A DNA stretch of 64,000 nt from an uncultured virus (IMG/VR IMGVR_UViG_3300018878_000121) (taxonomy: Duplodnaviria > Heunggongvirae > Uroviricota > Caudoviricetes): positions 1-64,000 of the IMG/VR virus record IMGVR_UViG_3300018878_000121, one strand, 5' to 3'. The position numbers were made by a program, and so were the translations under genes. Shown in pieces: positions 732 to 9,409 of the stretch. Positions within the stretch are counted from its first letter, which is position 1, and the number at the start of each line of letters is the position of its first letter. The notes beneath the pieces are model-generated. The model worked only from the letters and a program-made list of their open reading frames with translations, had not been told where the DNA came from and searched no databases.

Positions 732-847
732 AAGACACATTTTTTTATATTGCTTCACCCATTAAGCTATTTATCAAATTAAGTGGCTGATAAAATCGGA
801 CTTGAACCGATACTACATATAATATGTATAATTGCTGAATGTGTCTT
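732..847 (-). ncRNA. Circularly permuted tRNA-like gene inside CAGCAA clamp (anticodon possibly CAT)
   Basis: Order on minus strand: AAGACACATT-CAGCAA, T arm ATCGG-TTCAAGT-CCGAT, TTTATCA-G-CCA, linker, TGATAAA, D arm, AATGTGTCTT. Confidence 0.75.
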
Positions 848-1147: not shown

Positions 1148-1274
1148 TAGACATTTTTAAAGAAAACATTTTCCAGATGTTCGCGTATACCAATACCGCC
1201 TGAAGCCCTACTTTTGACGGGCTACTTGGGATTTGAACCCAAATCTTCTAAGAAGAAATTGCTGTAAATATCTA
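1148..1274 (-). ncRNA. Circularly permuted tRNA-Ser(GGA) inside CAGCAA clamp, break in variable arm
   Basis: T arm TTGGG-TTCAAAT-CCCAA, GTAGCCC-G, linker, GGGCTTC, D arm, intact anticodon arm AACAT-CTGGAAA-ATGTT; clamp TAGATATTT/AAATGTCTA. Confidence 0.78.
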
Positions 1275-3185: not shown

Positions 3186-3279
3186 AAGACTCTAATTCAA
3201 TAATTCAAAAATACCACACAGGAGGAAACCTACGCAACACAATTCAGAATAAAAATTTATAAATTGCTGTTTGAGTCTT
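3186..3279 (-). ncRNA. CAGCAA clamp element with hairpin cargo
   Basis: AAGACTC-AAACAGCAA ... GAGTCTT. Confidence 0.55.
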
Positions 3280-3281
3280 TT

Positions 3282-3357
3282 TGGTTCTCCCAACAGGAGT
3301 TGAACCTGTATCTCGCCCTTATAAGGAGCTTCCTCTAACCATTGAGCATATGGGAGA
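3282..3357 (-). tRNA. tRNA-Ile(TAT)
   Basis: TCTCCCA/TGGGAGA-ACCA; GCTC-CTTATAA-GGGC. Confidence 0.82.
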
Positions 3358-3507
3358 ATATTTGGGGTAGTTTTTACTGTAGCCTGCGGTTTCACTACCA
3401 AACCCAACTGAAACTCCACTATTCACCGCCCCATTAATGGGGTCTACCCGGCTCTAATAGCTTCAACGTTACGATAACACTCATAGTTGTTATCTTTTAG
3501 CGATCGC

Positions 3508-3607: not shown

Positions 3608-4753
3608 TTAAACCGCTTTAAAAGTTTTATTTTCATAAGTATCGCAACGATTTAAAATTATATATTCAAACTCTCTTTTACTATCTTTTTCTTTTTCTCG
3701 TTTAGCAACTTCTTTATCCATTCCCCAATAGTCATCATCATCAACACAAGGACGGATATGACTACCATCAATGCGCAAGCCACCATTTTTTTCATGAGTA
3801 AAATCACTGATATCAATTTCTATATCAATATATCTCTTATTTTTAAATGAAGAGGTATCTGCTAAACCTCTACAATAAATAACAGATTTTTCAGCAAGTA
3901 AATCAATAGAATAATGATAACCGCAAAATACTTCTCCAGTAGTAGAATAGGCAACAATATCATAATATACATTACCATCTCTACGAATATTTAAAAACTG
4001 TAAGGCATCATTAAAAGTTTCACCTTGATTAAGTTCAAACGCAATAGCACGAAGCAAATCATAGGTTACATTAGAAATATTAGAAAATCTAATTACATCA
4101 TCAATATAATGATGATATTCTGCCGCAAGCTTATCAGTAAGATATTCTCTAATTTCATCTGCTTCTGGAGCATTAACTGTAAAATGATAATGAAATCTAC
4201 CCGGCCTGTTAAGAAGATATGAACTAAGAGAATTTACATTATTACAAGTAATTACAAATAATTTCTTACCATTATTCATGCCATCAAATAAAGAAAGCAT
4301 TGCTTCTTGCGGATTAAAATTATCATCTCTACTTGCGCTTTGAAAATTCTTTTCAAATTCATCAAAAATAATTACGACTTCCTGCTCAATCGCCGCAAGG
4401 AATCCTTCAATACCAGGGATATAATCATTTACAAGAATTACAGGATATCCGCATTTTTGCGCTTTTTCAGCCAAAAGTCTAGCAAATAAGGATTTACCTA
4501 CACCTTTTTGACCACTCAGAATAAGACCAAGATTGCGGTTAAAACTTGAAAAAGAAGCAAGAACTTTACAAACTTTCTGGTCATGAGAACCATAAATCTT
4601 TTCTTCATTAGGGATAAGATTAGGTCTCTTGGAAAGAAAGAAACCAGTTTCTTTAGAAAAAGAAACATTATAAGATAAAGCCGGAAGATTTGTATAAGTT
4701 TTTACATCTTCACCATAAATTTGATAATTATTACCAAAATTTACTACATTCAT
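3608..4753 (-). CDS. AAA+ family ATPase
   Basis: Walker A GQKGVGKS, Walker B IIFDEFEK, sensor TCN, arginine finger NRPGRF. Confidence 0.92.
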   Translation of the reverse strand: MNVVNFGNNYQIYGEDVKTYTNLPALSYNVSFSKETGFFLSKRPNLIPNEEKIYGSHDQKVCKVLASFSSFNRNLGLILSGQKGVGKSLFARLLAEKAQKCGYPVILVNDYIPGIEGFLAAIEQEVVIIFDEFEKNFQSASRDDNFNPQEAMLSLFDGMNNGKKLFVITCNNVNSLSSYLLNRPGRFHYHFTVNAPEADEIREYLTDKLAAEYHHYIDDVIRFSNISNVTYDLLRAIAFELNQGETFNDALQFLNIRRDGNVYYDIVAYSTTGEVFCGYHYSIDLLAEKSVIYCRGLADTSSFKNKRYIDIEIDISDFTHEKNGGLRIDGSHIRPCVDDDDYWGMDKEVAKREKEKDSKREFEYIILNRCDTYENKTFKAV

Positions 4754-4909: not shown

Positions 4910-4998
4910 TGGCGGAGGGGGTGGGATTTGAACCCACGGGAGGTTGCCCTCCGACGGTTTAGTAGACCGTTGCTTTCAGCCAGCTCAGCCACCCCTCC
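4910..4998 (-). tRNA. tRNA-Ser(ACT)
   Basis: GGAGGGG/CCCCTCC-G-CCA, long variable arm, arm ACGGT-CTACTAA-ACCGT. Confidence 0.9.
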
Positions 4999-5442: not shown

Positions 5443-5552
5443 AAGACACATTAATCGCAAAATATTGGACTTGAACCAATTACTTTCAGAGTATCAGTCT
5501 GACGCTCTACCAAATGAGCTAATCTCGCTATGAGGTTTGCTGAATGTGTCTT
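5443..5552 (-). tRNA. tRNA-Ile(GAT)-like body (5456-5528, no CCA) enclosed by CAGCAA clamp
   Basis: AAGACACATT-CAGCAA, complete cloverleaf with TCAGA-CTGATAC-TCTGA, AATGTGTCTT. Confidence 0.78.
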
Positions 5553-6769: not shown

Positions 6770-6871
6770 AAAACACATTTTTTTGATATGGGACTTGAAC
6801 CCATGTTCTCACTGTTGCTGAGTGATGTCTTAACCGCTTGACAAATCATTTTATATTGCTGTATGCGTTTT
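6770..6871 (-). ncRNA. tRNA-like body (loop CAGCAAC, nominal GCA) with truncated acceptor inside CAGCAA clamp
   Basis: AAAACGCAT-ACAGCAA, D arm GTC..GAC, TCACT-CAGCAAC-AGTGA, T arm ATGGG/CCCAT, ATGTGTTTT. Confidence 0.68.
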
Positions 6872-9269: not shown

Positions 9270-9409
9270 AAGACGATTTAATATTTTCTTTTACCTGCTC
9301 TACCAACTGAGCTATTTCTATCTGCTAAGATAGAAAGTGGGACTTGAACCCACGACCCGGGTGTTGTCAGCACATAAAAATAATTAAAATAAATTGCTGT
9401 AATCGTCTT
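9270..9409 (-). ncRNA. Circularly permuted tRNA (anticodon GAC, Val) inside CAGCAA clamp
   Basis: AAGACGATT-ACAGCAA, GTG-CTGACAA-CACCC, T arm GTGGG/CCCAC, TTTCTAT, linker, ATAGAAA, D arm GCTC-AGTTGGTA-GAGC, AATCGTCTT. Confidence 0.78.

Follow-up and report, generated by a model that had tools for sequence, protein, structure and literature searches.

A small-RNA gene with a complete class-II tRNA cloverleaf in rotated order and its bracketed relatives in tailed phages

The tRNA array of an uncultured gut virus of the Caudoviricetes (IMG/VR record IMGVR_UViG_3300018878_000121) contains, on the minus strand at 1274-1148, a small-RNA gene in which all arms of a class-II tRNA are encoded in rotated order. 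The stretch that we analyzed (the window) comprises positions 1 to 64,000 of this record and is the first 64 kb of a single AT-rich virus contig of 126,353 bp, which is 71% complete according to CheckV. The element is a real and conserved gene that spells out a complete class-II cloverleaf, and it is a full-cloverleaf, variable-region-broken member of a phage-borne and uncatalogued family of tRNA-like cassettes, each enclosed in the same bracket of a paired terminal stem and a short motif. Judging from sequence, we suggest that the RNA may be a tRNA mimic that does not decode, a reading to which we give about an even chance; a working two-piece tRNA is a possible but doubtful alternative.

A cloverleaf encoded in rotated order

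In the 5' to 3' direction of the minus strand, the element consists of the variable hairpin, the T arm, the acceptor 3' strand with the discriminator G73, a 9-nt linker, the acceptor 5' strand, the D arm and the GGA anticodon arm (Table 1). A sequence-only reading of this DNA had proposed a circularly permuted tRNA-Ser(GGA) gene broken in the variable arm, and our parse of the minus strand bore out both the permuted order and the position of the break; the G73, the long variable arm and the perfect GGA anticodon arm that it described are all present. The same reading had seen a clamp in the pairing of TTCT with AGAA. This pairing stands as an alternative that covaries in relatives. However, the main clamp, which had not been described, is the outermost 9-bp stem, formed by the two ends of the RNA itself and adjoining the motif ACAGCAAU. 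The minimum free energy (MFE) fold reproduces this clamp and all of the arms (z = -2.3). Some positions depart from a textbook tRNA. The acceptor stem contains a U-U mismatch at 6:67, position 8 is A rather than U, and the first base of the D loop is U where A14 is expected. By inspection only, the last two differences could possibly represent a swap of the 8-14 tertiary pair.

Table 1. Parts of the element and other features of the window discussed in the text (bp, base pairs; nt, nucleotides)
Feature	Positions	Strand	Basis or remark
Terminal stem, 5' strand (9 nt)	1274-1266	-	Partner is 1148-1156 in the MFE fold
Single-stranded motif ACAGCAAU	1265-1258	-	Invariant in 10/10 aligned class-A sequences
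Variable region; hairpin (5 bp, 3-nt loop)	1257-1243; 1256-1244	-	Parse and MFE fold
T arm (5-bp stem, loop TTCAAAT)	1242-1226	-	3/5 pairs covary in relatives
Acceptor 3' strand; discriminator G73	1225-1219; 1218	-	Double changes in 5/6 scored acceptor pairs (relatives)
9-nt linker closing the acceptor stem	1217-1209	-	
Acceptor 5' strand	1208-1202	-	6/7 pairs with 1219-1225
A8 G9 and D arm; D arm (3-bp stem, 11-nt loop with GG)	1201-1183; 1199-1183	-	
G26 and anticodon arm; arm (5 bp, loop CTGGAAA); anticodon GGA	1182-1165; 1181-1165; 1174-1172	-	
Pyrimidine-rich 8-nt tail	1164-1157	-	Able to pair with the 3' strand of the variable hairpin
Terminal stem, 3' strand; conserved G	1156-1148; 1147	-	Fold, alignment
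Promoter-like site (TTGACA, 17 nt, TATAAT)	1963-1935	-	12/12 consensus matches
Sister cassette	732-847	-	Same bracket, T arm, closed 7-bp acceptor, CCA after discriminator, D arm, no tRNA-type anticodon loop
Sister cassette, YrlA-like, anticodon-less	9270-9409	-	Rfam YrlA 34.5 bits, E 1.5e-4 (gathering 69); covariance model R1 45.4 bits
Canonical-order tRNA-Ile(GAT) in the same bracket	5443-5552	-	ARAGORN, R1, motif and bracket scans
Bracketed non-tRNA hairpin cassettes	1319-1483, 1841-1915, 3186-3279	-	Terminal stem and CAGCAA, no tRNA-like cargo
Odd tRNA-like RNA in the same bracket	6770-6871	-	Rfam only (6784-6848, 36 bits)

As encoded, the element was not called by ARAGORN, and the region 1000-1480 gave no Rfam tRNA match at E ≤ 10. 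In the same region and at the same limit, the other Rfam families and ribozymes gave only two chance-level matches, neither of them to a ribozyme. The 3' half alone gave a truncated Rfam tRNA match of 12.7 bits, and the 5' half alone gave no Rfam match. When we re-joined the halves in a script, ARAGORN with default thresholds called tRNA-Ser(gga) in 252 of the 330 junction choices, and the 78 misses were the choices with the longest joined variable region. This re-ordering and scoring is the in-silico check that the earlier reading had proposed, and its outcome agrees with that reading.

We scanned the whole 126-kb contig (G000) on both strands for a T arm followed by an acceptor hairpin and gave the places found to ARAGORN for scoring, in order to see how often chance yields such an arrangement. 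Seven places gave any ARAGORN call and four gave at least 150 calls. Three of these four are free of overlap with canonical tRNAs; they belong to the tRNA array, are on the minus strand and have the same bracket. A consistent anticodon was obtained at 1274-1148 only among those places (224 of 254 calls), and the false positives of the scan were chimeras of adjacent canonical tRNAs.

The element is covered contiguously by contigs of four sequencing runs from four studies, and since these contigs span it unbroken, it is not an assembly artefact. Inside the element, the anticodon and the D loop differ at two positions each, one change creates the linker CCA, the variable loop has one additional base and the clamp has one change. 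The clamp change, at 1270 in three independent contigs, turns a U.G wobble of the terminal stem into C-G; the change at 1217, found in three contigs, makes the linker begin with CCA immediately 3' of G73; the additional base, also in three contigs, leaves the stem of the variable hairpin unbroken; and D-arm variants are confined to the loop (positions 1188 and 1192). No pair is broken by any of these differences: apart from the clamp change, which strengthens a pair, all are located in loops or linkers. GGA is the anticodon of the window and of the contigs of two runs, while in the near-identical contigs of the two others it is UAA on the same G73 scaffold. The exact junction pattern was found at 0 loci in viral contigs, and GenBank phages contained no near-identical record beyond a 56-nt tRNA-Asn match.

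Relatives, covariation and the bracketed family

In order to find relatives, we started from the ATPase gene that lies inside the array (3608-4753) and obtained 24 viral loci. At the matching place, a permuted class-II cloverleaf is present in eleven of these (L001-L011; phages of 160-197 kb); it shares ACAGCAAU and the T loop with the element and has a similar variable hairpin. Their acceptor, anticodon-stem and terminal-stem sequences are wholly unlike those of the window, and their anticodon is UGA in 10 of 11 and UAA in the remaining one. Related polypyrimidine/polypurine hairpins are present in relatives at the variable region, and in the L001-type relatives the tail and the variable hairpin change together. 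Further lineages with permuted cassettes were added by pattern scans.

Covariation was examined in nine relatives, with the window excluded, using a sequence-only MAFFT alignment and the majority vote of the parses as the structure. Bearing in mind that this structure was derived from the same nine sequences, 93.5% of the alignment cells were paired, compared with 33-50% when the partners were slid by 1-3 columns, and both sides changed in 20 of the 33 pairs, a score that none of 500 shuffles reached. Besides the T and acceptor stems (Table 1), double changes occur at 4 of 8 pairs of the terminal stem, and 4 of the 5 pairs of the anticodon stem are conserved or covarying. When we built a covariance model from these nine relatives (R1), it matched 1145-1276 on the minus strand of the window over all of its 128 positions (1-128) with 91.4 bits and an E value of 7.5e-19. 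In addition, C32, U33, A37 and A38 are invariant in 10 of 10 sequences although the triplet between them varies.

The clamp together with ACAGCAA forms a bracket that recurs widely. A bracket scan found 227 brackets compared with 32 in reversed-sequence controls, and the bases most often found 3' of the terminal stem are GT (67 of 227). Thirteen brackets enclose canonical-order tRNAs, which in other phages include Asn, Gly, Thr, Cys and Phe (L003 3751-3865; L322 5278-5388; and others). Since canonical-order tRNAs are enclosed too, the bracket is a general module of these tRNA arrays. In the window, ACAGCAAU also stands upstream of the sister cassettes (Table 1), and R1 matched the one at 732-847 with 62.1 bits and the anticodon arm deleted. 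The bracketed hairpins that lack tRNA-like cargo folded no better than shuffles (z = -1.8 and -0.6; two were folded).

Two further places in the window are tRNA-like in a different manner. At 6770-6871, the acceptor pairs poorly, and the 'anticodon' loop GCAACAG echoes the CAGCAA motif. At 343-462 on the minus strand, Rfam reported a tRNA of 32 bits (gathering 29). Its acceptor, D and T arms follow the usual order and CCA is encoded, and about 66 nt replace the anticodon arm, including a bracket-like GTCTTG followed by a CAGCAAT motif. ARAGORN called nothing at 343-462, also when introns were allowed (300-480).

For the family counts we used our own strict parsers, which demand paired stems, on 29 phage records or groups. 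They found 54 permuted cassettes in 28 of the 29. The anticodon arm follows the D arm in 15 of these, with the break in the variable region as in the window, and precedes the T arm in 8, with the break at 26/27; the other 31 have no tRNA-type anticodon hairpin. For the cassettes with the arm before the T arm, majority ARAGORN calls were dropped in favor of a strict hairpin parser, because poly-A tracts gave spurious Ser(aga) and made those calls unreliable. The anticodon loop reads CU-NNN-AA in 17 of 23 cases, and the linker that closes the acceptor ranges from 0 to 30 nt across the family. A CCA follows the discriminator in 13 of the 54 members, where about one is expected by chance, and it is encoded mostly by anticodon-less members (11 of the 13; 2 of the 23 with an anticodon arm).

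Searches on a larger scale gave a similar picture. R1 found 39 full-length matches at E ≤ 1e-5 in 723 kb, and the search pattern matched 42 times in 26 records when read forward, compared with 0 when read backwards. In a set of one genome per prokaryote species, we found at least 121 pattern loci, of which 13 passed the arm filter and about one was convincing by eye. Members of one sub-family (L311, L314, L315, L318 and L319) share the T arm CTGGG/CCCAG and the anticodon stem on a scaffold that is almost identical, and the loop closing the acceptor is conserved (T+TGGTC); their triplets differ: GAA, ACG, ATG, TAG and GTA.

Mimic or decoder

The closest known layout is that of the bacterial Y RNA relative YrlA (RF02553). 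According to the published account (Chen et al. 2014, PMC4201824), YrlA consists of a V stem-loop, a T arm, a loop-closed acceptor-like stem and a D arm, with paired ends; that account also places a proposed Ro60/Rsr site, GNCGAAN0-1G, near the 5' end, and reports that in vivo RNase P cuts the Mycobacterium smegmatis YrlA, whose acceptor has 7 bp, and that CCA is added to it. Our element has the same module order of V, T, closed acceptor and D within paired ends, and the nucleotides of its T and D loops are tRNA-like. Against the YrlA model, the window's sister cassettes scored 34.5 and 24.3 bits and family members in other phages 30-46 bits, with the gathering threshold at 69. The element differs from YrlA in several points. 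First, it has a complete anticodon arm with a 7-nt tRNA-type loop between the D arm and the terminal stem, so that the variable region, instead of the anticodon stem, holds its ends. Second, it falls below the RF02553 threshold, with no match at E ≤ 10. Third, ACAGCAAU takes the place of the Ro60 motif and no Ro60 gene adjoins it. Finally, it sits inside a tRNA array.

When we compared the element with a bacterial class-II tRNA-Ser, the long variable hairpin, the 3-bp D stem, G73, GGA, G18 G19 and the T-loop consensus were shared, whereas the rotation, the U-U at 6:67, the A8 with U at the A14 site and the extra terminal stem with its motif were not; moreover, ARAGORN and Rfam miss the element as it is encoded. 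A bacterial precedent for a permuted tRNA-like gene exists in the two-piece tmRNA of alpha-proteobacteria and cyanobacteria, whose permuted gene yields two base-paired chains after the acceptor-closing loop has been removed. Unlike our element, a tmRNA lacks an anticodon arm, and it contains a reading frame for a tag. ARAGORN found no tmRNA in the contig, and the sole match to RF04321 (tmRNA_permuted) is a weak one of 17.8 bits at 625-678, away from the element. Judging from its sequence, the element has the build of a permuted tRNA gene and would function as a mimic of the YrlA type, and it lacks features that define each of these two families.

Four sets of observations suggest that the RNA displays a tRNA shape rather than reads codons. 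First, neither the anticodon nor the discriminator is constant: GGA gives way to UAA in near-identical contigs, orthologues that share UGA have either A or U as the discriminator, and all four bases occur at this position in class A. Second, the scaffold with the long variable arm also carries GAA, GAT and AAC anticodons (Phe, Ile and Val), and short-arm scaffolds carry Ser, Leu and Tyr anticodons. Third, the anticodons of permuted cassettes duplicate a canonical tRNA of the same record in 8 of 23 cases, compared with a shuffle mean of 8.6 (P = 0.49; 19 records). We had considered that permuted anticodons fill gaps in the canonical set, which held for the contig and three relatives and failed on the 19 records. 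Fourth, the same bracket also encloses anticodon-less YrlA-like RNAs. In our reading, the anticodon loop is kept tRNA-like while its triplet changes on a scaffold in a manner that aminoacyl-tRNA synthetases could not follow. Display or mimicry fits this better than decoding, though the copy in the window may decode.

Several findings weigh against this interpretation. The element keeps the complete kit of a decoder, namely G73, a variable arm of class II and stems of 7 bp in the acceptor, 3 bp in the D arm and 5 bp in the anticodon arm, and the combination of GGA, G73 and a long arm is self-consistent for serine. The invariance of C32, U33, A37 and A38 around a varying triplet points in the same direction, and neither the contig nor its close relatives have a canonical tRNA with the same anticodon. 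The bracket is no mark of non-decoding RNAs, because canonical-order tRNAs share it. Likeness to YrlA also has its limits, as the element itself gave no YrlA match at E ≤ 10 in 1000-1480 and GNCGAA of the proposed Ro60-binding motif is absent from 1258-1276; the 5' end has instead a stem beginning N-A-G-A, followed by the invariant ACAGCAAU. Ro60/TROVE (PF05731) gave 0 matches in the 71%-complete contig and in 0 of 5 relatives, four of which are complete, in a search whose control genomes gave matches.

If the RNA is a mimic, it would be co-transcribed from the site at 1963-1935, behind a bracket cassette, tRNA-Asp, tRNA-Ile, tRNA-Pro and a second cassette, and would fold into a tRNA-like L shape. 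The clamp would protect the ends and also set their positions, a task that RNase P and RNase Z cannot perform when the gene is rotated. By analogy with the M. smegmatis YrlA, the 7-bp acceptor is likely a substrate for RNase P and for 3'-end processing. Whether cut or uncut, the product would present a tRNA body and an anticodon loop to some tRNA-binding factor instead of acting as a Ser-decoding adaptor. We can only speculate about the role, which might be that of a decoy or sponge for a factor that recognizes anticodon loops, or of a Y-RNA-like tether that uses a host protein; host Ro60, a tRNA-targeting nuclease, a modification enzyme or a synthetase would be candidate targets.

Alternatively, the element may be a working two-piece tRNA, which we regard as possible though doubtful. 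RNase P would cut before G1, RNase Z or exonucleases would trim after G73, and the linker would be removed; CCA would be added, or is already encoded in relatives; the pieces would be held together by the acceptor stem, the terminal stem and tertiary contacts; and seryl-tRNA synthetase (SerRS), which ignores the anticodon, would charge the product for decoding of UCC/UCU. The ARAGORN calls on the re-ordered halves, the suitability of G73, the long variable hairpin and the 3-bp D stem for serine, the invariant loop positions and the sharing of the bracket with canonical tRNAs are consistent with this idea, as is the position in a tRNA operon behind a consensus promoter. So are the CCA that follows G73 in three related contigs and its excess in the family. 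The sequence-only reading had stated that no conventional Ser(GGA) gene exists in the window, and indeed ARAGORN and Rfam called none there or in the contig; no other reader of UCN was called in the contig either. Against the idea, UAA replaces GGA on the same G73 scaffold in near-identical contigs, the discriminator is not conserved among orthologues, the class-II scaffold bears Phe, Ile and Val anticodons, and complementarity with the canonical sets is missing in the 19 records. Encoded CCA is rare where an anticodon arm is present, the acceptor has its U-U mismatch and position 8 its A, and a bulky stem with ACAGCAAU would remain on the variable region. The anatomy of a permuted tRNA-Ser(GGA), as originally proposed, is upheld, and the identity set of the window copy is consistent with serine, while the implied Ser-charged decoding is putative and is weakened by the anticodons and discriminators of relatives and by the anticodon-less kin. 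The broader proposal that permuted genes of gut phages yield chargeable, codon-reading two-piece tRNAs, with the linker excised by RNase P and RNase Z, a clamp in the variable region and an anticodon freely swapped on one scaffold, seems to us rather doubtful as well.

A third possibility is that the terminal stem and ACAGCAAU are a generic bracket that defines RNA ends, and that the cargo is mainly a signal for RNase P and RNase Z with no role after cutting. The bracket indeed holds permuted tRNA-like RNAs, canonical tRNAs and the non-tRNA hairpins alike, it is far more frequent than in reversed-sequence controls, and cassettes stand on either side of a small open reading frame (ORF) at 859-1068. 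However, a cleavage signal would need the acceptor and T arms only, whereas the anticodon stem, the D arm and loop positions 32, 33, 37 and 38 are conserved or covarying, indicating selection on the whole cloverleaf. We thus consider this explanation unlikely.

Permuted tRNA genes are known in Cyanidioschyzon merolae, other algae and the archaeon Thermofilum pendens, where the transcripts mature by a bulge-helix-bulge cut and ligation to a circle, followed by RNase P and RNase Z. Maturation of this type, in which cutting and ligation of the ends would give a circle or a continuous variable arm and RNase P/Z would open the acceptor to release a one-piece tRNA-Ser, appears quite improbable here. 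As in the algal and archaeal genes, the two halves share one strand with the 3' half placed first, the linker in the acceptor is short, and re-ordering gives a full cloverleaf; the flanks also pair, and the conserved junction motif could be a recognition site. However, the flanks pair as an uninterrupted helix of 9 bp, connected to the tRNA body by 8 unpaired nt on each side, and by inspection no bulge-helix-bulge (3-nt bulge, 4 bp, 3-nt bulge) is found. The break is in the variable region, and across the family it occurs at differing places with no common cut-site geometry. The relatives also vary in anticodon and discriminator. The host is bacterial, and the ligase RtcB (PF01139) is absent from the contig and five relatives; other ligases and endonucleases were not searched for, and a host enzyme could act. 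Nor did Rfam find a ribozyme in 1000-1480 at E ≤ 10.

Finally, a functionless, decaying relic of a rearranged or tandemly duplicated tRNA-Ser is very unlikely, for although the 5' strand of the variable hairpin recurs in the tail that follows the anticodon stem, a repeat of the kind left by a duplication whose breakpoints overlap, the layout is kept in distant phages with compensatory changes in every helix, the loop positions are invariant, the changes in independent contigs are structure-neutral, and the wholly different stem sequences contradict relatives being recent copies of one element.

Genomic setting and implications

The array contains 17 canonical tRNAs on the minus strand between 197 and 8474. 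Between the promoter-like site at 1963-1935 and the cassette, we found on this strand no other promoter-like site with at least 10 matches and no terminator-like site, so from sequence this site is probably the start of a transcript that ends with the cassette. A second strong promoter-like site (10/12) at 1132-1104 would serve the ORF at 1068-859, which separates the cassettes 732-847 and 1274-1148; a search for relatives of this 69-aa neighbor found 0 loci. The promoter-like region upstream of it (1072-1135) showed a summed contig depth in the thousands-fold and many 'goes back' joints in all four metagenome runs, indicating a sequence that is highly repeated in these communities or genomes.

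Elsewhere in the array, two canonical tRNAs have unusual anticodons, Ser(ACT), with A at position 34, and Ile(TAT), at 4910-4998 and 3282-3357 on the minus strand. Between tRNA-Ile(TAT) and tRNA-His, 3362-3471 on the same strand gave a weak Rfam match to drum RNA (29 bits, gathering 43, E 0.03). The late and structural genes (9599-64000 and the rest of the contig) are open only with TAG as a sense codon: translation of TAG as Q gives a longest ORF of 3309 aa, compared with 836 aa under table 11, and the matches to portal, tape-measure and sigma-factor proteins depend on TAG read-through. In the tRNA-array region, TAG does not occur in frame. A CTA suppressor tRNA was not called in the 71%-complete contig, while relatives have one adjoining tRNA-Tyr. 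We considered a permuted RNA as the missing TAG suppressor and rejected it, as no CTA anticodon occurs among them and the relatives have canonical CTA tRNAs.

We found no paper on phage-encoded permuted tRNA genes in the literature that we searched at the level of titles and abstract openings. If the RNAs are decoders, permuted two-piece tRNAs would exist in the bacterial world and would be, as far as we searched, the first permuted decoding tRNAs outside algae and archaea. If they are mimics, these phages would keep full-cloverleaf look-alikes with tRNA-type loops and many anticodons, without the Ro60 partner of Y-RNA-like mimics, which may point to an unexplored use of tRNA shape and anticodon display in infection, for example against host factors that target tRNA. 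Since standard tRNA finders and Rfam miss such RNAs, the tRNA repertoires of phages are undercounted or misread, and the shared ACAGCAA bracket offers a simple handle with which to find and test them.

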